A stretch of 40,875 nt of DNA, taken from the sequence record OQ703102.1; one strand, written 5' to 3'. Below, one piece after another: positions 2,501-38,102 of the stretch. Position numbers and translations under genes: made by a program. Source of the stretch: Escherichia phage vB_EcoP-R1. Position 1 is the stretch's first letter. Each line of letters starts with the position of its first letter. Below the pieces are notes generated by a model. It was not told where the DNA came from, made no database searches, and was given only the letters and a program-made list of their open reading frames with translations.

Positions 2501-4857
2501 TGCCACTAATTACTCAATCAATCAAGAACCTTAAGGGTGGCATTAGCCAACAGCCTGACATACTGAGGTTCTCAGACCAAGGCGAGTCACAGGTTAACTG
2601 CTGGTCATCAGAGAGTGATGGCCTCCAGAAGCGTCCACCTACAGTCTTCAAGCGACGTCTTAACATCGACGTTGGGAGCCACCCTAAGTTCCACCTGATT
2701 AACCGTGATGAGCAGGAGCAGTATTACATCGTGTTCAACGGGTCCAACATTCAGGTAGTTGACTTGAGCGGTAATCAATACTCAGTTTCCGGTGCGGTAG
2801 ACTACGTTAAGTCGCCCAACCCGCGAGATTACATCCGTGTCGTTACCGTTGCAGACTATACGTTCATCGTGAACCGTAAGGTTGTCGTTAAAGGTGGAAG
2901 CGAGACATCACACTCTGGTTATAATCGTAAAGCTCGTGCTTTAATTAACCTGCGTGGTGGACAGTATGGTCGCACCCTTAAGGTAGGAATCAACGGAGGA
3001 GTTAAGGTTGAGCATAAGTTGCCAGCAGGTAATGATGCCGAGAATGACCCTCCTAAGGTGGATGCTCAGGCCATCGGTGCAGCTCTGAGAGACCTTCTTG
3101 TTGCTGCTTACCCTACCTTCACGTTCGACCTTGGGTCTGGATTCCTGTTAATCACTGCCCCTTCAGGGACTGACATTAACTCAGTGGAGACGGAGGATGG
3201 CTACGCTAACCAGCTAATCAGTCCAGTACTCGACACGGTGCAAACAATCTCTAAGTTGCCTCTTGCGGCTCCAAATGGGTACATCATTAAGATTCAAGGG
3301 GAGACCAACAGTAGCGCCGATGAATATTACGTGATGTATGACTCCAACACTAAGACGTGGAAGGAGACAGTAGAGCCGGGAGTGGTCACTGGGTTTGATA
3401 ACACCACAATGCCTCATGCTCTGGTTAGACAATCTGACGGCTCCTTTGAGTTCAAGACTCTGGACTGGTCTAAGCGTGGTGCTGGTAATGATGACACAAA
3501 CCCTATGCCTAGCTTCGTGGATGCCACGATTAACGATGTGTTCTTCTACAGGAATAGGCTGGGGTTCTTGTCAGGCGAGAACGTGATCATGAGCCGTTCA
3601 GCAAGCTACTTTGCGTTCTTCCCTAAGAGTGTGGCGACACTGAGTGATGATGATCCTATTGACGTAGCTGTAAGTCACCCTAGAATCTCAATCCTTAAGT
3701 ATGCCGTTCCGTTTAGCGAGCAGCTACTACTTTGGTCGGATGAGGTTCAGTTCGTGATGACAAGCTCTGGGGTCCTTACCTCGAAGTCTATCCAGCTTGA
3801 TGTAGGCTCAGAGTTTGCCCTAGGTGACAATGCCAGACCGTTCGCTGTAGGACGCTCAGTCTTCTTCTCAGCTCCTCGTGGGTCATTCACCAGTATTAAG
3901 CGATACTTCGCTGTAGCTGATGTATCTGATGTGAAGGATGCAGATGATACAACAGGTCACGTACTGTCCTACATCCCTAACGGGGTGTTTGATATTCAAG
4001 GTACAGGTACTGAGAACTACATCTGCGTCAACTCTACAGGTGCATACAACCGAATCTACATCTACAAGTTCTTGTTTAAGGACGGAGTACAGCTTCAAGC
4101 CTCTTGGTCACACTGGGAGTTCCCTAAAGATGATAAGATTCTGGCGTCTGCTTCTATTGGCTCTACCATGTTCATCGTTCGTCAGCACCAAGGAGGGGTA
4201 GACATTGAGCACCTTAAGTTCATCAAGGAGGCAACTGACTTCCCCTCAGAGCCATATAGACTACACATTGACTCCAAGGTGTCTATGGTAATTCCAATTG
4301 GCTCATATAATGCTGACACCTATAAGACTACGGTTGACATTGGTGCTGCTTATGGTGGCAACGCTCCGTCTCCCGGTCGGTACTATCTGATTGACAGTCA
4401 GGGTGCTTATGTGGACCTTGGGGACTTGTCCAGTATCTCTACTGTGATTACCCTCAACGGCGATTGGTCAGGACGTACAGTGTTCATCGGACGGCCCTAT
4501 CTGATGTCCTACAAGTTCTCACGGTTCCTGATTAAGATTGAAGATGATAGTGGCACTCAGTCTGAAGACACTGGTCGTCTACAGCTTCGTCGGGCTTGGG
4601 TCAACTACAAGGACACTGGCGCTCTGAGACTCATTGTCAGAAACGGTGAGCGGGAGTTCGTGAATACCTTCAACGGGTACACCCTTGGTCAGCAAACCAT
4701 CGGTACTACAAACATTGGTGACGGGCAGTATCGATTCGCTATGAATGGTAACGCATTAACCACGAGTCTAACCTTAGAGTCCGACTATCCTACCCCAGTG
4801 TCCATCGTTGGGTGTGGCTGGGAGGCATCATACGCTAAGAAAGCTCGTTCAGTCTAA
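2500..4857 (+). CDS. 12: Tail tubular protein B (gp12 homolog)
   Basis: 785 aa (T7 gp12 is 794 aa); conserved position; start overlaps gene 11 stop (TAATG). Confidence 0.88.
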   Translation: MPLITQSIKNLKGGISQQPDILRFSDQGESQVNCWSSESDGLQKRPPTVFKRRLNIDVGSHPKFHLINRDEQEQYYIVFNGSNIQVVDLSGNQYSVSGAVDYVKSPNPRDYIRVVTVADYTFIVNRKVVVKGGSETSHSGYNRKARALINLRGGQYGRTLKVGINGGVKVEHKLPAGNDAENDPPKVDAQAIGAALRDLLVAAYPTFTFDLGSGFLLITAPSGTDINSVETEDGYANQLISPVLDTVQTISKLPLAAPNGYIIKIQGETNSSADEYYVMYDSNTKTWKETVEPGVVTGFDNTTMPHALVRQSDGSFEFKTLDWSKRGAGNDDTNPMPSFVDATINDVFFYRNRLGFLSGENVIMSRSASYFAFFPKSVATLSDDDPIDVAVSHPRISILKYAVPFSEQLLLWSDEVQFVMTSSGVLTSKSIQLDVGSEFALGDNARPFAVGRSVFFSAPRGSFTSIKRYFAVADVSDVKDADDTTGHVLSYIPNGVFDIQGTGTENYICVNSTGAYNRIYIYKFLFKDGVQLQASWSHWEFPKDDKILASASIGSTMFIVRQHQGGVDIEHLKFIKEATDFPSEPYRLHIDSKVSMVIPIGSYNADTYKTTVDIGAAYGGNAPSPGRYYLIDSQGAYVDLGDLSSISTVITLNGDWSGRTVFIGRPYLMSYKFSRFLIKIEDDSGTQSEDTGRLQLRRAWVNYKDTGALRLIVRNGEREFVNTFNGYTLGQQTIGTTNIGDGQYRFAMNGNALTTSLTLESDYPTPVSIVGCGWEASYAKKARSV

Positions 4858-15317: not shown

Positions 15318-15321
15318 GTGT

Positions 15322-20910: not shown

Positions 20911-23592
20911 ATGAGCGTCATCTCTATTGACAAACATGACTTCTCTGATGTGTCAAACGCCATTGAGCCGTTTAACCTGCTGGCCGACCACTACGGGCAA
21001 GACCTTGCAGTCAAACAGCTTCAGCTTGAGCATGAGGCATATACAGAAGGCGAGCGACGTTTCATCAAGAACCTTGAGCGCCAGACCGAGCGCGGGGAAC
21101 TGGCAGACAATCAGGTCGCCAAGCCTTTGATGCAGACTCTGGTCCCTAAGATTGCGCAAGCCGTCAGGGAGTGGCACGAAGGCCTAGACGGGAAGCTGTC
21201 AACCTCGCGTCCTAGCGTAGCGTTCACCATGTTGAGCACTGAAGAGAAGGCCGTAAAGGACCGCTCTATGCGCATCTCCTGTGAGTCCGCTGCGGTTATC
21301 ATACTGAAGGTCATACTCTCCAAGCTGGTCAAGCCTGAAGGGATACCGATTACACCGATGGCCTCCGCGATAGGTCGCACACTTGAGGACGAAATCCGCT
21401 TCGGTCGCATCCGTGACAAAGAGAAGGAGCACTTCAAGAAGGCGATAGCTGAGAACCTGAACAAGCGAGCTGGGGCATCCTACAAGAAAGCCTACATGCA
21501 AGCGGTCGAGGCGTCCATGCTGGAGCAAGGCCAACTGGAAGATGCATGGGGGACTTGGAGTCCTACAGAGGCTGTCCACGTTGGCATCAAGATGCTCGAG
21601 ATTGTCATCCAGTCAACACAACTGGTCGAGCTTAAGCGGTACGGTGCTGGTAATGCAGCGGCTGACGTAGAGATGGTCCACCTGTCAGACTTCTGGGTCA
21701 AGAAGATGGCACAACGAGGATTCAGCCTTGCGGGTATCGCTCCAGTCTACCAGCCTTGCGTCGTTCCACCTAAGCCGTGGACTGGTGTCGTAGGTGGTGG
21801 GTACTGGGCCAAAGGTCGCAGACCGTTACCATTGATTCGCTTAGGGTCTAAGTCTGCGGTAGCACGTTATGAAGACGTATACATGCCTGAAGTCTATGAC
21901 GCTGTGAACATCATTCAGAATACACCTTGGAAAGTTAACAAGAAGGTATTGGACGTGGTGAACATGGTCGAGAAGCTGAACAACACGCCTATTGATGACA
22001 TCCCTCAGATGGAACCGCTGAAGCCTGAGGACTATGCTGGTGAAACCGAGGAGGAACTCAAGGCATGGAAGAAGGCTGCTGCTGGTATCTATCGCCGCGA
22101 GAAGGCCAGACAGTCACGCAGATTGTCCATGAGTTTCATCGTATCACAGGCCAACAAGTTCTCACAGTTTAAGGCCATCTGGTTCCCGTACAACATGGAT
22201 TGGCGAGGTCGTGTCTACGCTGTCCCGATGTTCAACCCTCAGGGTAACGACATGCAGAAGGGTCTACTGACTCTGGCGGTCGGAAAGCCTATCGGGGCGG
22301 ATGGTTTCAAATGGCTTAAAGTCCACACCGCCAACTGCGCGGGTGTCGATAAGGTAACCTTTGAGGAGCGTATCAAATGGGTGGAAGACAATCACGAGAA
22401 CATTCTGGCAGCAGCCAAATCACCGATGGACAGCATCGAGTGGTGGGGGAGTATGGACAGCCCCTTCTGCTTCCTAGCGGCTTGCTTCGAGTATTCTGGG
22501 GTGATGAACCATGGCTTGACCTACAATTGCTCACTTCCGATTGCCTTCGACGGCTCGTGTTCGGGGATTCAGCACTTCAGCGCGATGCTGAGGGACCACG
22601 TAGGCGGACATGCAGTGAACTTAACGCCGTCTGGTCAGGTGCAGGACATCTACCGTATAGTCTCAGACCGTGTGTCAGACCAGTTGAAAGAGCTATTACT
22701 GATCGGTACGGACGACGAGCTGGTGACCGTAGAGGACAAGAAGACTGGGGAAATCAGCGAACGCCTGAAGCTTGGGACCAAGAGTCTTGCGCGTCAGTGG
22801 CTGCAATTCGGTATGTCTCGCTCGGTCACTAAGCGCTCGGTCATGACTCTGGCCTACGGGTCGAAAGAGTATGGGTTCGCCGACCAAGTGTTCGAAGACA
22901 CCGTGATGCCAGCGATTGACTCCGGTAAGGGAGCAATGTTCACCGAGCCAAGCCAAGCGTCTCGCTTCATGGCTAAGATGATTTGGGAAGCTGTGAGTGT
23001 GACAGTAGTTGCTGCGGTTGACGCGATGAAGTGGCTTCAAGGTGCCGCCAAGCTGCTGGCTGCTGAAGTGAAGGACAAGAAGACTGGTGAAATCCTGAAG
23101 CCATGCCTTCCGGTACACTGGGTCACACCTGATGGGTTCCCGGTCTGGCAGGAATACCGCAAGAAGGATACCACTCGTCTGAACCTGATGTTCTTAGGGT
23201 CCTTCAACCTTCAACCTACGGTCAACAAAGGTACGAAGAAAGAGCTGGACAAGCACAAGCAGGAGTCAGGCATTAGCCCGAACTTCGTCCACTCACAAGA
23301 TGGTAGCCACCTCCGCAAGACTGTAGTCCACACGCACCGCAAGTATGGCGTGATGTCATTCGCAGTGATTCACGATAGCTTCGGGACCATCCCGGCTGAC
23401 GCTGAGTATCTGTTCCGTGGCGTCCGTGAGACGATGGTAGAGACATACCGCGATAACGATGTGCTGCTTGACTTCTACGAGCAGTTTGAATACCAGCTTC
23501 ATGAAAGCCAGCGCGACAAGTTGCCTGAGCTTCCGAAGAAAGGTAAACTGAATATCGAAGACATCTTGTCTTCAGACTTTGCATTCGCTTAA
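20911..23592 (+). CDS. 1: Single-subunit DNA-dependent RNA polymerase (gp1 homolog)
   Basis: 893 aa; NDFSD...PFN.LADHYG, GRIRD.E..HFKK, PCVVPPKPWTG..GGGYWA.GRRPL, AIWFPYNMDWRGRVYA, FDGSCSGIQHFSAMLRD, RSVTKRSVMTLAYGSKE, HDSFGT and C-terminal FAFA all parallel T7 RNAP. Confidence 0.97.
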   Translation: MSVISIDKHDFSDVSNAIEPFNLLADHYGQDLAVKQLQLEHEAYTEGERRFIKNLERQTERGELADNQVAKPLMQTLVPKIAQAVREWHEGLDGKLSTSRPSVAFTMLSTEEKAVKDRSMRISCESAAVIILKVILSKLVKPEGIPITPMASAIGRTLEDEIRFGRIRDKEKEHFKKAIAENLNKRAGASYKKAYMQAVEASMLEQGQLEDAWGTWSPTEAVHVGIKMLEIVIQSTQLVELKRYGAGNAAADVEMVHLSDFWVKKMAQRGFSLAGIAPVYQPCVVPPKPWTGVVGGGYWAKGRRPLPLIRLGSKSAVARYEDVYMPEVYDAVNIIQNTPWKVNKKVLDVVNMVEKLNNTPIDDIPQMEPLKPEDYAGETEEELKAWKKAAAGIYRREKARQSRRLSMSFIVSQANKFSQFKAIWFPYNMDWRGRVYAVPMFNPQGNDMQKGLLTLAVGKPIGADGFKWLKVHTANCAGVDKVTFEERIKWVEDNHENILAAAKSPMDSIEWWGSMDSPFCFLAACFEYSGVMNHGLTYNCSLPIAFDGSCSGIQHFSAMLRDHVGGHAVNLTPSGQVQDIYRIVSDRVSDQLKELLLIGTDDELVTVEDKKTGEISERLKLGTKSLARQWLQFGMSRSVTKRSVMTLAYGSKEYGFADQVFEDTVMPAIDSGKGAMFTEPSQASRFMAKMIWEAVSVTVVAAVDAMKWLQGAAKLLAAEVKDKKTGEILKPCLPVHWVTPDGFPVWQEYRKKDTTRLNLMFLGSFNLQPTVNKGTKKELDKHKQESGISPNFVHSQDGSHLRKTVVHTHRKYGVMSFAVIHDSFGTIPADAEYLFRGVRETMVETYRDNDVLLDFYEQFEYQLHESQRDKLPELPKKGKLNIEDILSSDFAFA

Positions 23593-27292: not shown

Positions 27293-27991
27293 ATGGCTAA
27301 AGAGCAACTGAAGACTTTCACCACTCCGGTAGCTGGTATCGTTGAGCCTTACGCATGGCTGAACAAAGCAGACACTAAGTTTAACGAGCGTGGTGAGCAT
27401 AAGGTTAACCTGACATTCGACCTGAGCAGCCCGAAGGTCCGTAAGATGATTGATGTCTTACAGAAGATTCACGACGATGCGTATGCGAAAGCACTTGCAG
27501 ACCACGAGAAGAACCCACCTCAGGTTCAGCGTGGCAAGAAGCCTATTGAACCACGAGAAGGCGACATGCCGTGGATTGAGAATGGTGACGGTACTGTTAC
27601 CATGAAGTTTAAATGCTTCGCGTCTTACCTGAAGGATGGTAAGTCAGAGCCTATCGTATTACGGTTCTACGACACCGATGCTAAGTTAATCCGTGACGTC
27701 CCGAATATTGGCGCTGGCTCCAAACTGAAGGTCAAGTTTAAAGTCCTTCCGTTCAAGTGGAACGCTGCGACTGGTGCAAGCGTTAAGCTCCAGCTTGAGT
27801 CCTGCCTTCTGGTAGAACTGAAGGAGTGGAAAGGCGATGGTGCTGGTAGCGATGGTGGCTGGGGTGATGATGAAGACCTCGGTACTGGCTACAAAGCGTC
27901 AACCGATGGTGACTTCGGGTCTGACGACTTCAGTGACGATGGTTGTGATGGCGATGACGACTCCAACTCTGGTGGCGATTACGACTTCTAA
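27293..27991 (+). CDS. 2.5: Single-stranded DNA-binding protein (gp2.5 homolog)
   Basis: 232 aa, same length as T7 gp2.5; acidic C-terminal tail ending ...DDDSNSGGDYDF. Confidence 0.9.
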   Translation: MAKEQLKTFTTPVAGIVEPYAWLNKADTKFNERGEHKVNLTFDLSSPKVRKMIDVLQKIHDDAYAKALADHEKNPPQVQRGKKPIEPREGDMPWIENGDGTVTMKFKCFASYLKDGKSEPIVLRFYDTDAKLIRDVPNIGAGSKLKVKFKVLPFKWNAATGASVKLQLESCLLVELKEWKGDGAGSDGGWGDDEDLGTGYKASTDGDFGSDDFSDDGCDGDDDSNSGGDYDF

Positions 27992-28443
27992 TGGCCCAAT
28001 GGTCTGCAAAACGGGGGCACTCTGTGGGTGCCTACCGCTCTGGACTTGAAGCCAAGAACCAGCAGTGGCTGGAACAGAACGGCGTCAAAGCGGAGTACGA
28101 AAGCCATTATATCAACTATGTGATTCCGGCTTCCGACCACAAGTACACACCAGACTTTATCCTTCCTAACGGTATCATCGTGGAGACCAAAGGTATCTTC
28201 GATAGTGATGACCGTAAGAAGCACCTTCTGGTACGAGAACAGCACCCAGAGTTAGACATTCGGTTCGTGTTCTCAAGTTCCCGCTCCAAGTTATACAAAG
28301 GGTCTCCGACCACGTATGGCGCATGGTGCGAAAAGAACGGCTATAAGTATGCCGATAAGTTCATCCCGGTTGAGTGGCTTCGAGAGGCGACTGTACGTCT
28401 GCCTTCAGGTATCCTCATCCCCAAGAAGAAAGGAGTTAAGTGA
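27991..28443 (+). CDS. 3: Endonuclease I, Holliday junction resolvase (gp3 homolog)
   Basis: 150 aa; ...YVIPASDHKYTPDFILPNGIIVETKGIFDSDDRKKHLLVREQHPELDIRFVFSSSRSKLYKGSPTTYG... parallels T7 gp3. Confidence 0.92.
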   Translation: MAQWSAKRGHSVGAYRSGLEAKNQQWLEQNGVKAEYESHYINYVIPASDHKYTPDFILPNGIIVETKGIFDSDDRKKHLLVREQHPELDIRFVFSSSRSKLYKGSPTTYGAWCEKNGYKYADKFIPVEWLREATVRLPSGILIPKKKGVK

Positions 28444-28913
28444 TGACTCAGAAATATAGACTTAAAGTTAGCATCTACGGGTGGCCTAGAGGTACTATCG
28501 TCACAAAATGTGCGAAAGACCCTGTACCAGTGCCTGGACTTGTTCTGGTGGAATCCACTGAGCGTGGCCTCTACAAGCACGGAGCAGCGGGGCATAACAG
28601 TCAGCCTGACGGAATGTGGGGGGCATGGGTTTCAAATGAATATCTTGAGGAAATTGGAGAGGATAAACCTCAAGTCCTGCCAGCCTCAAGCGTCCCTCCT
28701 GTCACCGTTAAACGTGAAGTCCTGACCATCGACAAGATTGGTGTAGGCCAGACGTTCATCGTCCACGGGAAGCCTGAAGAAGTTTACGTGAAGATTAGCA
28801 ACTCACACGTCTTCAACCATAAGCGTCTCCAGATGCACACCACGGACGCACAGCGCTTCACCCAGCACCTGAATCTAGTGGTCGTAGAATTGGTGGTGTA
28901 CAATGGTAAGTAA
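28443..28913 (+). CDS. Hypothetical protein inserted between endonuclease I and amidase
   Basis: 156 aa from ATG 28443 (track start 28440 is a GTG); RBS AAAGGAG; no counterpart in T7, where gene 3.5 follows gene 3. Confidence 0.55.
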   Translation: MTQKYRLKVSIYGWPRGTIVTKCAKDPVPVPGLVLVESTERGLYKHGAAGHNSQPDGMWGAWVSNEYLEEIGEDKPQVLPASSVPPVTVKREVLTIDKIGVGQTFIVHGKPEEVYVKISNSHVFNHKRLQMHTTDAQRFTQHLNLVVVELVVYNGK

Positions 28914-29666: not shown

Positions 29667-31370
<1,704 letters not shown>

Positions 31371-31381
31371 GGAGGAGTACA

Positions 31382-31546
31382 TTGCTAAGAAAACTTAAAG
31401 CTCGCTACCATCGGTTCATGTACAAATGGTGGAGTGATGAAGCAACCTGCCTGTCCAACATTCTGGGAGACCAGAGGTTCGACTCTAAGGCTTGGAAGAA
31501 GGCTAACCGGAAGTTTATGTATCACTTCTTGCGTACAGACTTCTAG
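31382..31546 (+). CDS. Hypothetical small protein (gp4.3 position; start uncertain)
   Basis: Track ORF 31349..31546 overlaps the gene 4 end; a TTG at 31382 follows RBS AAGGAGG; an ATG at 31419 is the alternative. Confidence 0.35.
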
Positions 31547-31549
31547 GTC

Positions 31550-31592
31550 TAGACTCAAGGTCATTCACATCGAGTGGCCTTTATGATTAGAC
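31550..31592 (+). promoter_or_regulatory. RNase III-type processing hairpin (R4.7-like)
   Basis: TAGACTCAAGGTCATTCACATCGAGTGGCCTTTATGATTAG; third near-identical copy. Confidence 0.5.
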
Positions 31593-31614
31593 TTATAACT
31601 AAAGGAGAAGCAAT

Positions 31615-32046
31615 ATGAGGACTTGTAGTAGATGTGGCTCTACAAAGGAGTCCACTGAGTTCAGGAAGACAAATGGGTGGTGCATATCCTGTGTTCGTGA
31701 GGATAATAGGTCGCGATATCATCGAAACAAAGGTACAGAGGCCGGTGAGGCGCATCGCCTATCTGCCCGTAAGTCTTGGCTTAAGAAAGCCTATGGTCTC
31801 ACACTTGAGGAATATGACACTATGTTCGATAGTCAAAAGGGCAGATGCGCTATATGCTCAGACATTATCTTCAAGCATGGGTCTATTGAGAGTAAGAATA
31901 ATGTAGCCCACGTTGACCATTGCCATGACTCAGGTATTGTTAGGGGATTGCTATGTGGTACATGTAATAGCGCACTTGGTAAGTTCGGTGACAAGGTAGC
32001 CGTGCTTAGGGCTGCTATAACGTACTTGGAGAAATATAATGTTTAA
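31615..32046 (+). CDS. HNH endonuclease, endonuclease VII-type (putative homing endonuclease)
   Basis: 143 aa; Cys-rich N-terminus (CSRCGS...CISC) plus CAICSD...HVDHCHDSGIVRGLLCGTCNSALG, the typical endonuclease-VII/HNH zinc-binding core. Confidence 0.8.
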   Translation: MRTCSRCGSTKESTEFRKTNGWCISCVREDNRSRYHRNKGTEAGEAHRLSARKSWLKKAYGLTLEEYDTMFDSQKGRCAICSDIIFKHGSIESKNNVAHVDHCHDSGIVRGLLCGTCNSALGKFGDKVAVLRAAITYLEKYNV

Positions 32047-34210
32047 TCTCAACTCATTCTATGGCACAGATATAGAGACTGACGGTCTACTAGACACTGT
32101 GTCACAGTTCCATTGTGGTGTTATCATTAACGCTGGAACTCAGGCTACTGAGAAATATGGTGTTGCCCCTATGACTGGGCTGACAGGTGGATTCAAAGAG
32201 TACATAGACCGCATAGAATCTATTATGGCATCCACTGACGGTATGCTGGTTCTGCACAATGGTGTGAACTATGATATACCAGCCTTGAAAATACTGAAGA
32301 AGAAATACTTTGGTAAGAACCTAAATGTGAATAAGGGTCGAATTATTGATACCTTGGTACTTGGTCGCTTGATGTATCCAAACATTAAGTTCTCAGACAT
32401 GGGCGCGGTGAAAGCTGGTCGTCTGCCACCTAAGATGATGGGACGCCAGTCTCTTGAGGCTTGGGGCTATCGTCTCGGTGAGATGAAAGGTGAGTACAAA
32501 CACGATTACGTTGCCAAGTGCAAGGCTGAAGGTATCGAATATAAGGCTGGGGACGAATGGTTGTTCCCGTCTCAGGAGATGCTGGACTATAACGTTCAAG
32601 ACGTTGTGGTCACACTGGCGTTGTTCAAGAAGTTCCTGACTGACAAGTATTACTTCCAGTCTGAACAGTTTGCTTTCGACCAGATTTATGCGTTGCGTCT
32701 GGAACATGATGCTGCGTGGACCTGTGCGAAGATGGAGCGTAACGGCTATCCGATGAACACCGAGATGGTCGAAGGCTTATATCGTGAACTCACCGTCAAA
32801 CGTGCAGAGTTGTTGGACAAGCTGCGTTCGACTTTCGGTAGCTGGTATGCACCAAAGGGAGGCAAGGAGTTCTTCAAGCACCCACGGACAGGCAAGGACC
32901 TTCCGAAGTATCCGCGAGTCGTGTATCCTAGGGTCGGGTCAGTATTCAAGAAGCCGAAGAACAAAGCTCAACGCTTAGGTCTGGAGCCTTGCGAGTTCGA
33001 CTCACGAGACACGATGGAAGGAGCACCGTTCACGCCAATCACTTACGTTGAGTTTAATCCGGGAAGCGGAGACCACTTAGCGAAAGTCTTGATGGAGCGT
33101 GGTTGGGAGCCTGTGGACTTCACTGACACTGGGAAACCTGTAGTAGATGACGAGACGTTAGAACACGTTAAGCTACCAGACGCAGAGGCTCAGGCTTGCG
33201 TAGAGCTGGTCCGTGAGTATCTGGTAGTCCAGAAGCGCATCGGTCAGGCGGCTGAAGGTAAGAACGCATGGTTGAAACTTGTAGGTCCAGACGGACGTAT
33301 GCACGGTTCAATCAACCCATGCGGTGCAGTAACAGGACGTGCGACTCATAGTTCACCAAACATGGCTCAGGTCCCTGCTAACGGTGCTCCGTATGGTGAG
33401 ATTTGCCGTGGTGCTTTCGGTGCAGCTTGGAACAAGACGGATGGTAAGCCAGACCCTTGGATTCAAGTGGGTGTGGATGCTTCAGGTCTTGAGCTTCGTT
33501 GTCTGGGGAACCGAGCAGCTCCGTTTGATGGTGGTGCCTATGCGAAGACTGTGGTCGAAGGTGACATCCACTGGGCCAACGCAGTAAACGCTGGTTTAGC
33601 ACCTAACGTCCCACGCGATAAATCGAGCCACGACCATGATGCTTTCCGTAACAACGCTAAGACGTTCATCTATGCGTTCCTGTATGGTGCAGGGGCCGCT
33701 AAGATTGGACTGATAGTCGGCGGTGGTAAGAAGGAAGGTTCAGCTCTCATGAAGAAATTCATTGAGGGTACACCAGCCATCAAAGACCTCAGGGAAGCTG
33801 TGAGTAATACGTTAATCTCAGACTCTAAGTGGGTAGATGGTGAGAACATCGTTAAGTGGAAACGCCGTTGGCTGCGTGGACTTGACGGTCGCCGTATCCA
33901 CATCCGGTCGCCACACTCAGCACTGAACGCCTTACTTCAAGGTGACGGTGCGGTAGTCTGTAAGCACTGGATGGTACTGACGGAGAAGAAACTTGAGGAA
34001 GCTGGCTACGGTAATGGCTGGGATGGTGACTTTGCGCTAATGGCTTGGATTCACGACGAATTGCAGATTGCGTGTCGTACTCAGGAGATTGCCGAAGAAG
34101 TCGTCCGTATTGCACAAGAAGCAATGCGTGAGGTAGGACGTTTTTATAACTTCAAGTGTGATCTTGATACGGAGGGTAAGATTGGACCAACGTGGAAAGA
34201 GTGTCACTGA
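32039..34210 (+). CDS. 5: DNA polymerase, family A (gp5 homolog)
   Basis: 723 aa; ...SQFHCGVII, LEAWGYRLGEMKGEYK, DYNVQDVVVT, HPRTGK.LPKYPR, FKKPKNKAQR, GAVTGRATHS.PN.AQ.P, DASGLELRCLG, KTFIYAFLYGAG, KRRWL.GLDGR..H.RSPH.ALN.LLQ, GWDGDFA.MAW.HDE.Q parallel T7 gp5. Confidence 0.97.
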   Translation: MFNLNSFYGTDIETDGLLDTVSQFHCGVIINAGTQATEKYGVAPMTGLTGGFKEYIDRIESIMASTDGMLVLHNGVNYDIPALKILKKKYFGKNLNVNKGRIIDTLVLGRLMYPNIKFSDMGAVKAGRLPPKMMGRQSLEAWGYRLGEMKGEYKHDYVAKCKAEGIEYKAGDEWLFPSQEMLDYNVQDVVVTLALFKKFLTDKYYFQSEQFAFDQIYALRLEHDAAWTCAKMERNGYPMNTEMVEGLYRELTVKRAELLDKLRSTFGSWYAPKGGKEFFKHPRTGKDLPKYPRVVYPRVGSVFKKPKNKAQRLGLEPCEFDSRDTMEGAPFTPITYVEFNPGSGDHLAKVLMERGWEPVDFTDTGKPVVDDETLEHVKLPDAEAQACVELVREYLVVQKRIGQAAEGKNAWLKLVGPDGRMHGSINPCGAVTGRATHSSPNMAQVPANGAPYGEICRGAFGAAWNKTDGKPDPWIQVGVDASGLELRCLGNRAAPFDGGAYAKTVVEGDIHWANAVNAGLAPNVPRDKSSHDHDAFRNNAKTFIYAFLYGAGAAKIGLIVGGGKKEGSALMKKFIEGTPAIKDLREAVSNTLISDSKWVDGENIVKWKRRWLRGLDGRRIHIRSPHSALNALLQGDGAVVCKHWMVLTEKKLEEAGYGNGWDGDFALMAWIHDELQIACRTQEIAEEVVRIAQEAMREVGRFYNFKCDLDTEGKIGPTWKECH

Positions 34211-34241
34211 CCCTCGAACCAAGACCTTGCGCTTCCACACA

Positions 34242-34535
34242 ATGCCTACTGGATGTATCGTCTGCGTGTCCCACAAGAGGAACCAAGATGGATACTTCCG
34301 GTATTCTATGGGAAGCTACAGGAAGGGCAACAAGTTCGCCTTCATGTTTCACAGATGGGTGTGGGAACAGAAGCGCGGACCTATACCGGATGGCTATGAG
34401 ATAGACCATTTGTGTTTGAATCGTGGGTGCTGTAACGTAGAACATCTACAATGTATTCCAAAGCGTGATCACGTCATCAAGACGAACCGTGAGCGCAAAC
34501 TTATTAAGAAGGAGAAGACTAATGGCTATTACTAA
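34242..34535 (+). CDS. HNH endonuclease (gene 5.3 position)
   Basis: 97 aa from ATG 34242 (track ORF 34158..34535 starts inside DNAP); ...GYFRYSMGSYRKGNKFAFMFHRWVWEQKRGPIPDGYEIDHLCLNRGCCNVEHLQCIPKRDH...N is a classic HNH core. Confidence 0.75.
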   Translation: MPTGCIVCVSHKRNQDGYFRYSMGSYRKGNKFAFMFHRWVWEQKRGPIPDGYEIDHLCLNRGCCNVEHLQCIPKRDHVIKTNRERKLIKKEKTNGYY

Positions 34536-34806: not shown

Positions 34807-35012
34807 GTGAATACTTACGGGTCCTAGCGGCCCTTAAGTCCTGCCCGAAGACCTTCCAGTCTAACTATGTGCGCAACAACGCTGCACTTGTGGCTGAGGC
34901 TGCGAGTCGTGGACATCTAAGCTGCCTGTCTATGGATGGGCGTAACAACGGTGCGTGGGAAATTACCGCTGCTGGCACCAAGTTCCTGAACCAACACGGA
35001 GGCTGTCTATGA
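34803..35012 (+). CDS. 5.7: gp5.7-position protein
   Basis: 69 aa, same length as T7 gp5.7; ...KSCPKTFQSNYVRNNAALVAEAASRGH...; assigned by position and size. Confidence 0.6.
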   Translation: MSEYLRVLAALKSCPKTFQSNYVRNNAALVAEAASRGHLSCLSMDGRNNGAWEITAAGTKFLNQHGGCL

Positions 35013-35458
35013 AGATACCTGAAAGTCTGAAAGAGCTGGTCCTTGACATGGGTGAGTGCGAGAAGGAGCACCGCAAGTACGCTGAGTTCTACGCATCTTG
35101 GTCATACACCTTGACAGAGAAGGACGTTGAGTCATACACCGAGTCTCCCGCTGAGGCTTATGAGTGGCGTCCATTCATCGGACTGACCATCGTAGCTAGC
35201 GGTATGTGGGATGACAGATACGGTTCAGAGGTAAACGACTGGGACGTGTGCCGCCAAGTTGAGAAGGAGACTGAGATGTCTTCAAACTTCTGGAACCTGA
35301 TGTCACACCTAAACTCAGAGGACAACGACAAGGCCCATGAGTTCGCCAACAAATGGCTGAAGCCTGAGGTGACTCTCGAACGTATAGAGGAGCCGAAAGT
35401 GCCCTTGATGCCATATGTAGTCGCTATGGCTACAGGAGGTCTGGACGATGGGTGCTGA
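35009..35458 (+). CDS. Acidic hypothetical protein at the gene 5.9 position (much longer than T7 gp5.9)
   Basis: 149 aa from ATG 35009 (overlaps the 5.7 stop as ATGA); Glu/Asp-rich; T7 gp5.9 is 52 aa. Confidence 0.5.
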   Translation: MKIPESLKELVLDMGECEKEHRKYAEFYASWSYTLTEKDVESYTESPAEAYEWRPFIGLTIVASGMWDDRYGSEVNDWDVCRQVEKETEMSSNFWNLMSHLNSEDNDKAHEFANKWLKPEVTLERIEEPKVPLMPYVVAMATGGLDDGC

Positions 35459-37448: not shown

Positions 37449-37689
37449 ATCAATCAGTAAGGCCTTCAAGAAAGTGGTGAAAAGTACGTTAGGGACCGTT
37501 GGTCTTGGCTCTGATGACGCGCCTAAGGTTGTTGAGGCTAAGACCCCAGCAGCACCAGTGGAAGTACCGAACGACAAAGTGGAGGATGTGGATACTGAAG
37601 CAACCGCATCTGATGAGAAGAAAGTGAAGCGTTCCGGTAAGCGTAGCCTTCAGGTCTCTCGCACCTCTGGTGGCGGTATTTCTATATGA
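37441..37689 (+). CDS. 7.3: gp7.3-like tail/virion protein
   Basis: 82 aa, Lys/Ala/Val-rich, ends ...RSLQVSRTSGGGISI (T7 gp7.3 ends similarly as I recall); GTG start. Confidence 0.65.
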   Translation: MGKSISKAFKKVVKSTLGTVGLGSDDAPKVVEAKTPAAPVEVPNDKVEDVDTEATASDEKKVKRSGKRSLQVSRTSGGGISI

Positions 37690-38102
37690 CAGGGTGCATC
37701 GAGTGGAAGTGGGCCAAATCCTCAGCAGGATACGGGCAGAAGCGTATAGACGGTAAGTTAGTGTATATGCACCGACTCGCTTACGCCGATGCACATGGGC
37801 CAATACCAGACGGAATGCTCGTCCGTCATAAGTGTGATAATCCAGCATGTTTTAACGTAAACCACTTAGAGTTAGGAACTCAGCGTGATAACATGCAGGA
37901 CGCCTCAAAGCGTGGTCGAGTCAATAAAACCAAAATGGCTAGAGGTGAGGACCAAGGGTTATCGGTTTTAACAGAAGACCTTGTTCGAGAAATCCGCAAG
38001 TCAACAGTAGGTTGTACAACACTGGCTCGTGAGCTGGGCGTTAGCAAGTCTACAGTTTTGCGGGTTCGCCAAGGTAAAACATGGAGGCACGTAGATGGCT
38101 GA
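37686..38102 (+). CDS. HNH endonuclease with C-terminal helix-turn-helix (gene 7.7 position)
   Basis: 138 aa; ...GYGQKRIDGKLVYMHRLAYADAHGPIPDGMLVRHKCDNPACFNVNHLELGTQRDN... HNH core; C-terminal ...TLARELGVSKSTVLRVRQGKTW is HTH-like. Confidence 0.75.
   Translation: MTGCIEWKWAKSSAGYGQKRIDGKLVYMHRLAYADAHGPIPDGMLVRHKCDNPACFNVNHLELGTQRDNMQDASKRGRVNKTKMARGEDQGLSVLTEDLVREIRKSTVGCTTLARELGVSKSTVLRVRQGKTWRHVDG

Follow-up and report, generated by a model that had tools for sequence, protein, structure and literature searches.

F-CphI of cyanophage S-PM2 is a characterised free-standing homing endonuclease and the founder of the 'DHHRN' family (Fang et al. 2018, Mob DNA, PMC6083498). The family is defined by D-H-x-H, R and N residues, with CX2-4C and CX2C zinc ligands around DHxH, and cleavage by F-CphI was abolished when D101, H102, R110 or N118 was mutated (PMC6083498). 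Proteins with the Endo VII motif were divided in that study into two clades: a 'resolvase' clade, in which the motif is N-terminal as in T4, and an 'endonuclease' clade, in which it is C-terminal. The 'endonuclease clade' contains intron-encoded copies from DNA polymerase genes, Hpy99I, and proteins of T7-like podoviruses in which endonuclease I is already present (PMC6083498). Both the Endo VII-motif family as such and its occurrence in T7-like phages have been published already, as has its role in homing (PMC6083498).

Two further proteins with this nuclease core serve as points of comparison. T4 endonuclease VII (gp49) has a beta-beta-alpha-Me core, a Cys4 zinc site and D/H/H/N residues, whereas Hpy99I is a bacterial type II restriction enzyme that cuts duplex DNA sequence-specifically. 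HNH genes associated with the DNA polymerase (DNAP) gene have also been described: Bonocora and Shub reportedly showed in 2009 that T3 gene 5.3 is a free-standing HNH gene beside the DNAP gene and that I-TslI of phage PhiI is encoded in an intron. Both represent a different HNH subfamily, and their positions are downstream of gene 5 or within it.

In this study, we analysed an Endo VII-type gene located upstream of the DNAP gene in a stretch of 40,875 bp, hereafter called the window. The gene has already been deposited (WGL34767.1, Escherichia phage vB_EcoP-R1) with the annotation 'endonuclease VII'. With a probability of roughly 80%, we consider it to be a free-standing homing endonuclease gene that has inserted precisely at the DNAP start codon of a Kayfunavirus; among the HNH/beta-beta-alpha-Me nucleases, it belongs to the Endo VII-motif ('DHHRN', F-CphI-like) branch.

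Results

Genome and locus

The window comprises an entire T7-like coliphage genome, which is circularly permuted and belongs to the genus Kayfunavirus (Autographiviridae, Studiervirinae); its genome-wide nucleotide identity to Kayfunavirus isolates was 93-95%. Besides the genes listed in Table 1, those for exonuclease, portal, capsid and terminase were found, and all of these lie on one strand. No Rfam family was matched in a scan of the whole window. Mosaicism was observed throughout, the nearest relative switching in many of the 200-nt bins; general homologous recombination is rampant among T7-like phages and could account for a mosaic pattern taken alone.

The first-pass annotation had described a 143-aa protein with the motifs CAICSD, HVDHCHDSG and CGTCNSALG, encoded behind an RNase III-like hairpin by an open reading frame (ORF) that ends 8 nt into the DNAP gene. 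The ORF is real, starts with ATG on the plus strand and contains all three motifs, which supply C78 and C81, D101-H102-C103-H104, and C114, C117 and N118, respectively. Its neighbours are a 65-aa gp4.2x-like ORF (PHROG 13039) and the DNAP gene, and no methyltransferase gene was found among them. The DNAP gene is a single unbroken ORF, and the HNH ORF lies upstream of its start codon and outside any intron. The gene is not a homologue of T7 gp4.7, whose position between R4.7 and gene 5 is syntenic with it; this candidate was rejected on a BLASTP E of 3.6.

A second HNH gene is located at the 3' end of the DNAP gene, so that HNH genes flank DNAP at both ends, the 5' one being of the Endo VII type. 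The second gene fits the 'HEG island' pattern around essential genes reported by Barth et al. 2023 (PMC10448857). Its identification as a homologue of T7 gp5.3 was ruled out, as BLASTP gave no similarity.

Table 1 Positions in the window of the features discussed in the text, with percentages of nucleotide differences where segments were compared.
Feature	Position	Strand	Remarks
Single-subunit RNA polymerase	20911-23592	same as other genes	
Phage_endo_I PF05367 (gene 3, T7-type resolvase endonuclease I)	27991-28443		Pfam E=2.8e-81
Primase/helicase	29670-31370	same as other genes	
RNase III-type hairpin, conserved backbone	~31551-31593	+	Fold -22.1 kcal/mol, z=-2.55 vs shuffled
Cassette	31594-32352		Differences from window: four carriers 0.7-2.5%; ZG49 without HNH gene
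Cassette leader with own Shine-Dalgarno (AAGGAG 31602-31607, 7 nt before ATG)	31594..31614	+	
Putative free-standing homing endonuclease gene, Endo VII-motif / DHHRN (F-CphI) family, 143 aa, ATG start	31615..32046	+	
New DNAP ribosome-binding site (GGAG 32028-32031) and start codon	32028..32041	+	Inside 3' end of endonuclease gene
HNH-linked DNAP 5' tract, codons 1-~104, DIET and HNGxxYD exonuclease motifs	32039..32352	+	Sliding identity, per-50-nt difference counts
DNA polymerase (DNAP), T7 gene 5 homologue, 723 aa	32039..34210	+	Pfam DNA_pol_A; neighbour and presumed target of HNH gene
Flanks, both sides pooled			Differences from window: four carriers 3.7-5.4%
Right flank	32353-33600		Differences from window: four carriers 3.8-4.3%; ZG49 1.2%
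Second HNH gene, DNAP 3' end	34158-34535		

The protein and its relatives

The proposal that the protein is an Endo VII-type HNH nuclease with zinc-binding cysteines agreed with profile searches, PDB matches, the homologue alignment and the predicted structure. The Pfam family Endonuclease_7 (PF02945) matched residues 55-140 over profile positions 3-82 of 82 with 86.3 bits against a gathering cut-off of 23.6 (E=1.4e-24), and PHROG 2633 ('endonuclease VII') matched with E=1.3e-35; the family assignment is thus far beyond chance. In an alignment of 33 homologues, the catalytic residues D101, H102, H104, R110 and N118 and the zinc ligands of the nuclease core, C78-x2-C81 and C114-x2-C117, were all invariant. 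In the N-terminal Cys4 module, C7, C23 and C26 were invariant and C4 was nearly so. The Endo VII motif occupies residues 78-118 of 143 and is therefore C-terminal.

The best PDB sequence matches were Hpy99I (E=1e-6) and T4 Endo VII (E=2.5e-5). An AlphaFold model built from the alignment reached a pLDDT of 92.2, and T4 Endo VII (~92 aligned columns) and Hpy99I were the top Foldseek matches of this model. An Endo VII/Hpy99I-like fold is predicted with confidence for the protein. Residue conservation and the modelled fold together support a nuclease-competent protein.

All six copies of the HNH gene that were compared are full-length, with 143 codons and intact catalytic and zinc-binding residues. 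Against an 82%-identical variant on the metagenome contig L009, pS was 0.83, which is saturated, pN was 0.137 and pN/pS was 0.17. This low ratio at saturated synonymous sites indicates that the protein has been maintained by purifying selection.

We took the F-CphI sequence from the S-PM2 record for direct comparison. BLASTP aligned the two proteins end to end (residues 2-141 against 10-141) with 36% identity and E=1e-24. They are similar in length (142 aa for F-CphI and 143 aa for the window protein) and share an architecture consisting of an N-terminal CxxC...CxxC module, which also aligns, and a C-terminal Endo VII motif. The catalytic residues are alike, and even their numbering coincides (D101, H102, R110, N118). 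Both genes are free-standing, and each has a conserved or essential gene as its neighbour: for F-CphI, which targets an intron insertion site, this is psbA of a T4-like cyanomyovirus, whereas for the window gene it is DNAP of a T7-like phage. Unlike F-CphI, the window gene overlaps the downstream gene and putatively feeds it translationally. As judged from the alignments, the window protein has every sequence-testable feature of the F-CphI family and lacks those that define a T4-type resolvase.

Przondovirus IL33/BIS33 and T7-like phages of Aeromonas have homologues with ~49-51% identity, which immediately precede DNAP. The IL33 gene encodes a protein of the same family and also adjoins the DNAP 5' end with an overlap. 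The copies in Berlin and LUZ24 are of this family and associated with a T7-like DNAP gene as well, but they lie inside a group I intron, whereas the window gene is free-standing at the 5' end. The relatives in the Berlin/LUZ24/IL33 group are only ~47-51% identical to the window protein. Hpy99I, the best PDB sequence match, falls in the 'endonuclease clade', and its similarity includes the C-terminal helix LGxFxD...YLxKY; the N-terminal domain differs, and the window protein is viral and has no adjacent methyltransferase. T3 gene 5.3 and I-TslI differ from the window gene, which is an Endo VII-type gene lying upstream of gene 5.

Sporadic occurrence at a fixed site

If the gene belonged to the core of the genus, it would be present at this position throughout; this was not so. 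In a megablast search with positions 31300-32300, the left flank was matched as far as 31593 by 192 phage records, of which only SHAK9454, Zappy, HC13 and UFJF_EcSW4 continued through the HNH gene. In a tblastn search of 50,697 records, the protein was found at >=95% identity in the same four, and the next matches were at ~51%. The gene was thus carried by 4 of the 192-223 related records matched. It is less rare in raw-run assemblies than among phage records: a 90%-identity cluster from such assemblies holds 43 distinct sequences of the HNH, mostly on ~40-kb contigs.

The slot itself was surveyed with a query in which the flanks were joined (31000-31593 and 32400-33000), and the span between them was read for each record. 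Among 43 evenly spread relatives with full coverage, the slot was empty in 36, of which 33 had the usual length. In the other three, SH3, SH4 and SFP20, the extra length is due to a longer gene-4.x region further upstream, where a 176-aa ORF without Pfam match replaces the gp4.2x ORFs; an endonuclease insert was rejected for these longer spans. An insert of ~400 bp was observed at the slot in CR44b, 101118UKE1, T147P5 and Bas105. It codes for a 133-aa HNH_3 endonuclease with a helix-turn-helix tail, which is unrelated to the Endo VII type. The HNH_3 gene was counted in 4 of the 43 relatives, or in 5 when T147P5, whose insert of ~400 bp matches it at 88.8%, is included. vB_EcoP_F, which has an intermediate span, and one further record were left unclassified in these counts. 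Among close relatives, the HNH gene is accordingly polymorphic, being present or absent at one fixed site.

The insertion point was located by comparison at base resolution with the HNH-less site, using the fully sequenced ZG49 and the partial CR44b. The empty site of ZG49 reads ...GATTAGAC-TAAACGGAGGATTAACC-ATG TTT GAC..., with gene 5 starting in its last part. The HNH_3 gene of CR44b begins at the native ribosome-binding site and ATG, and so does the Endo VII-type variant of metagenome contigs L009 and L010, whose HNH product has 82% aa identity and which shares both the slot and the 8-nt overlap. For the window-type cassette, the match to the empty site breaks off at this point too, after GATTAGACT. 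In all three kinds of insert (window type, L009/L010 and HNH_3), a new GGAG...ATG for the polymerase lies inside the 3' end of the endonuclease gene. By this alignment, two unrelated endonuclease families occupy the identical nucleotide position, the start codon of gene 5.

A cassette including the 5' end of the polymerase gene

Comparison of the N-terminal region of DNAP with HNH-less relatives, which the first-pass annotation had proposed, was informative. The first ~310 nt are 38% divergent from the common Kayfunavirus allele (against ZG49, DNAP nt 1-306), and the gene is then close to ZG49, with 98.8% identity beyond ~32352. The divergent 5' allele was seen only in the four carriers of the window-type HNH gene. 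The HNH gene and these first ~310 nt of DNAP form a cassette of ~760 bp.

The difference counts in Table 1 separate the cassette from its surroundings. In the carriers, the cassette differed less from the window than the flanks did (Fisher p from 0.034 to 1.5e-10), and in the right flank ZG49 was closer to the window than the carriers were (p<=3e-5). From these counts, the window consists of a ZG49-like backbone and a segment of ~760 bp common to the carriers. The cassette has been transferred into a backbone otherwise closest to HNH-less ZG49.

At the protein level, the linked tract (searched as DNAP residues 1-109) was 66% identical to the Kayfunavirus norm, and its nearest relative was that of Caroctavirus CR8 (77.8%). 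No HNH gene was found at the corresponding site of CR8. The donor lineage of the divergent tract is unsampled, CR8 being the closest match found. The L009/L010 variant is associated with a diverged tract of its own, with 72-78% identity to ZG49 over gene 5 nt 0-240 and 93-98% thereafter. The protein encoded by the L009/L010 tract is near the common allele (85% aa), and therefore a strongly divergent polymerase segment is not obligatory. Positions altered in both HNH-linked DNAP alleles had no power to single out a target site, as the divergence was uniform and synonymous sites were saturated (pS 0.73-0.81).

Hairpin and expression signals

The first-pass annotation had placed an RNase III-like hairpin before the gene. 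The fold was recovered, and the invariant blocks CTCAAGGTC...GTGGCCTT(T/C)ATGA of its sequence recur in the T7 sequence immediately before promoter phi4.7; the second block, after CTCAAGGTC, can also be written GTGGCCTTYATGA. We take this T7 sequence to be the RNase III site R4.7 of Dunn and Studier (1983). At least two more copies of the hairpin sequence family occur at 15321 and 24159, in addition to two weaker ones. The 3' end of the hairpin coincides with the left insertion boundary, and HNH-less relatives are homologous through 31593. The hairpin is identical in HNH-less ZG49 and in CR44b, which has the other endonuclease gene at the slot. Because HNH-less relatives have it unchanged, the hairpin is part of the conserved backbone rather than of the inserted gene.

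In the junction alignments, the cassette leader stands in place of the native gene-5 leader TAAACGGAGGATTAACC. At the other end of the gene, the HNH stop codon and the DNAP start codon overlap by 8 nt (AATATAATGTTTAA), which confirms the overlap claimed initially; GGAGAAATATAATG was also found in the 82%-identical variant of contigs L009 and L010. This stop/start overlap suggests that translation of DNAP may be coupled to that of the HNH ORF.

The genome contains 10 copies of a phage promoter with the consensus CTAAACTATCACTATAGGA. None lies between 29616 and 36416, and no promoter belonging to the cassette was found there; the HNH gene, which follows the RNase III-type hairpin, is therefore expressed from the gene-4 transcript. 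Scans for sigma-70 promoters and terminators gave nothing over the shuffled expectation.

Discussion

The sporadic occurrence, the shared slot, the cassette transfer and the full-length homology to F-CphI agree with what had been proposed at first sight, namely that this is probably a free-standing mobile endonuclease gene adjacent to DNAP. From the sequence, we infer nuclease activity, a cleavage site and homing of the HNH protein. In a mixed infection, genomes without the HNH gene would be cut by the enzyme, either around the gene 4.x/gene 5 junction or somewhere in the ~300 nt that open gene 5. Resection would follow, and the phage recombination system would repair the break with the HNH-carrying genome as the template. 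Such repair would copy in the endonuclease gene and co-convert the adjacent 5' segment of the polymerase gene as far as the first long stretch of near-perfect identity, which starts from ~32350. The carrier allele would escape cutting because its site is destroyed by the insertion, the divergent tract or both. Expression is parasitic on gene 5, whose ribosome-binding site is in turn replaced and whose start codon now overlaps the endonuclease gene.

The Pfam name and the database annotations, which read 'recombination endonuclease VII', would suggest a different role, in which a structure-specific nuclease like T4 Endo VII resolves Holliday junctions or branched intermediates, or cuts mismatches, before packaging. 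T4 Endo VII is indeed the best structural match of the predicted model and shares its catalytic residues. Only the catalytic core aligns, however, covering T4 residues 9-71 of 157 in sequence and ~92 columns in structure (TM 0.36-0.40). The window protein stops ~25 residues past the core, so that the C-terminal half of the T4 protein has no counterpart, and it has instead an N-terminal zinc module, a Cys4 extension of ~55 residues, as in F-CphI. Unlike T4 gp49, the window gene is sporadic and dispensable. A resolvase role is unlikely because the phage has its own T7-type resolvase (gene 3), and a gene that is missing in most close relatives cannot be an essential resolvase. The T7-like podovirus members that have endonuclease I also fall in the 'endonuclease clade' (Fang et al. 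2018, PMC6083498). We regard a resolvase function as extremely improbable.

The evidence for nuclease competence and purifying selection would apply equally to an active site-specific nuclease kept mainly as a weapon, which cuts the polymerase gene of co-infecting competitors or host DNA and for which copying of the gene is incidental. The bracketing of DNAP by two HNH genes, comparable to 'HEG islands' (PMC10448857), would suit such a use, and a Kayfunavirus paper has speculated that nucleases of this kind act against the host (PMC8861465). This possibility overlaps homing rather than excluding it, since the cut in a competitor and the copying of the gene into it are one event. The structure of the cassette demonstrates copying of the gene into other backbones, and no evidence pointed to host DNA as the target; we consider use mainly as a weapon unlikely. 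It is very unlikely, in our estimation, that the gene is an inactive or decaying passenger whose encoded protein contributes nothing, the cassette pattern arising from ordinary homologous recombination between T7-like phages. The mosaicism of T7-like genomes, seen throughout the window, is compatible with such a passenger; the intactness of every catalytic and zinc residue in six of six full-length copies and a pN/pS of 0.17 at saturated synonymous divergence are not what would be expected of one. Moreover, homologues with ~50% identity occupy the same position upstream of DNAP in other genera, and the identical insertion point of two unrelated endonuclease families is unexpected from neutral recombination.

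Returning to the homing endonuclease, we can extend its interpretation to the genus. We propose tentatively, with somewhat more doubt than belief, that two or more unrelated families of homing endonuclease (Endo VII/DHHRN, and HNH_3 with a helix-turn-helix) compete for the gene 5 start codon of Kayfunavirus as a landing site, that the Endo VII-type element would also be a vehicle by which the N-terminal exonuclease-motif segment of DNAP is swapped between lineages to give chimeric polymerases, and that the divergent tract would be a selected, cleavage-resistant 'immunity' allele and not a neutral hitch-hiker. On the last point, the linked tract may be just hitch-hiking donor DNA, which would be the simpler reading. 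Because the L009/L010 protein stays close to the common allele, the 'immunity' allele is something that we infer rather than observe.

Our literature search found no description of this Kayfunavirus lineage, its cassette or the shared start-codon slot. These are small additions to the published family and no new kind of system.

The findings bear on how such genes are named and on the evolution of polymerase genes in these phages. Databases list proteins of this type as 'recombination endonuclease VII' or 'hypothetical protein'; in T7-like phages, they would be better read as mobile homing endonucleases than as resolvases. The locus would be a natural example of an element that captures the expression signals of an essential gene, using an RNase III-processed leader and giving the gene a new ribosome-binding site and an overlapping start codon. 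It would likewise exemplify the use of one nucleotide position by two unrelated endonuclease families, and the carrying along of ~310 nt of the neighbouring polymerase gene, by which chimeric polymerases arise. In phage engineering and therapy cocktails, mixed Kayfunavirus infections would be expected to exchange the cassette segment, and phylogenies based on the polymerase gene will be distorted near its 5' end.

Endonuclease genes at the ends of the DNA polymerase gene

A variant of the endonuclease VII-type HNH gene was found on two ENA metagenome contigs (L009 and L010), where it was 82% identical to the window gene, with 71.5% identity at the nucleotide level. It occupied the same insertion slot as the window gene and likewise overlapped the start of gene 5 by 8 nt, and a phage promoter adjoined the hairpin. 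Linked to the variant was a separate diverged tract of approximately 240 nt at the 5' end of the polymerase gene, and the 90% cluster of the variant comprised six members, one of which was derived from a 39.7-kb contig.

Furthermore, a second HNH gene, unrelated to the endonuclease VII-type gene, was located directly 3' of the DNA polymerase stop codon (34210), and its true start is probably the ATG at 34242. ZG49 and UFJF_EcSW4 carry this gene; SHAK9454, Zappy, HC13, and CR44b lack it. T7 gp5.3, considered as a possible relative, showed no similarity to it. The last approximately 400 nt of the DNA polymerase gene (33800-34200) showed just 70-90% identity to each comparator. Two mobile endonuclease genes therefore flank the DNA polymerase gene, each of them adjoining a diverged tract.

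A third HNH gene was observed at the portal gene, whose start (38095) lies within the 3' end of the HNH gene. The resulting 8-nt overlap has the same stop/start geometry as that between the endonuclease VII-type gene and the DNA polymerase gene.

Features in the window and at the comparison loci
Feature	Locus	Coordinates	Domain or family match
Variant HNH gene	L009, ENA metagenome contig	147-578	
Variant HNH gene	L010, ENA metagenome contig	539-970	
Second HNH gene	Window	34158-34535	Pfam HNH_3, E=2.4e-18
Third HNH gene	Window	37686-38102	Pfam HNH_3, E=1.3e-15
Endonuclease, 133 aa	L003, CR44b	3811-4212	HNH_3 + helix-turn-helix
Endonuclease, 133 aa	L014, Bas105	650-1051	HNH_3 + helix-turn-helix
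Gene 4.7, 135 aa	L013, T7	628-1035	
ORF, 176 aa	L015, SH3	415-945	
ORF, 176 aa	L016, SFP20	429-959	
ORF, 157 aa	Window	28440-28913	
ORF, 167 aa	Window	34955-35458	
Small ORF, 65 aa as listed	Window	31349-31546	PHROG 13039, residues 12-65

Database records

A further deposit of the endonuclease VII-type HNH protein, in its protein cluster, bears the name 'endonuclease VII domain-containing protein [Pantoea ananatis]' (WP_455939285.1) and comes from a 40,742-bp contig, which is most likely a phage genome within a bacterial assembly. In the UNVERIFIED record of SHAK9454 (OR594184.1), the annotation table and the BLAST sequence coordinates differ by an offset of 2,775 nt; hence, the feature names under the matches are wrong, such as 'exonuclease' over the HNH gene.

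Accessory genes around gene 5

The 65-aa ORF that separates the primase/helicase gene from the hairpin is retained in relatives, where its annotation is gp4.21/4.22-like. In some Kayfunavirus genomes, small gp4.2x ORFs in the primase/helicase-polymerase interval are replaced by a 176-aa ORF, for which no Pfam match was obtained in SH3 and SFP20. Neither the 157-aa nor the 167-aa ORF of the window had a Pfam match, and their segments aligned poorly or not at all to several close relatives. They are additional variable islands in the early/replication region.

In other Kayfunavirus genomes, exactly the same position at the start codon of gene 5 is occupied by a 133-aa HNH_3 endonuclease unrelated to the endonuclease VII-type protein. 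This gene takes over the ribosome-binding site, ATG, and first codons (MFD...) native to gene 5. Megablast retrieved eight records of it, corresponding to six distinct phages, and further, more divergent copies exist. In T7, the syntenic slot extends from RNase III site R4.7 to gene 5, and is filled by gene 4.7, which is not homologous to the endonuclease VII-type gene. The position directly upstream of gene 5 therefore houses accessory genes across the subfamily.
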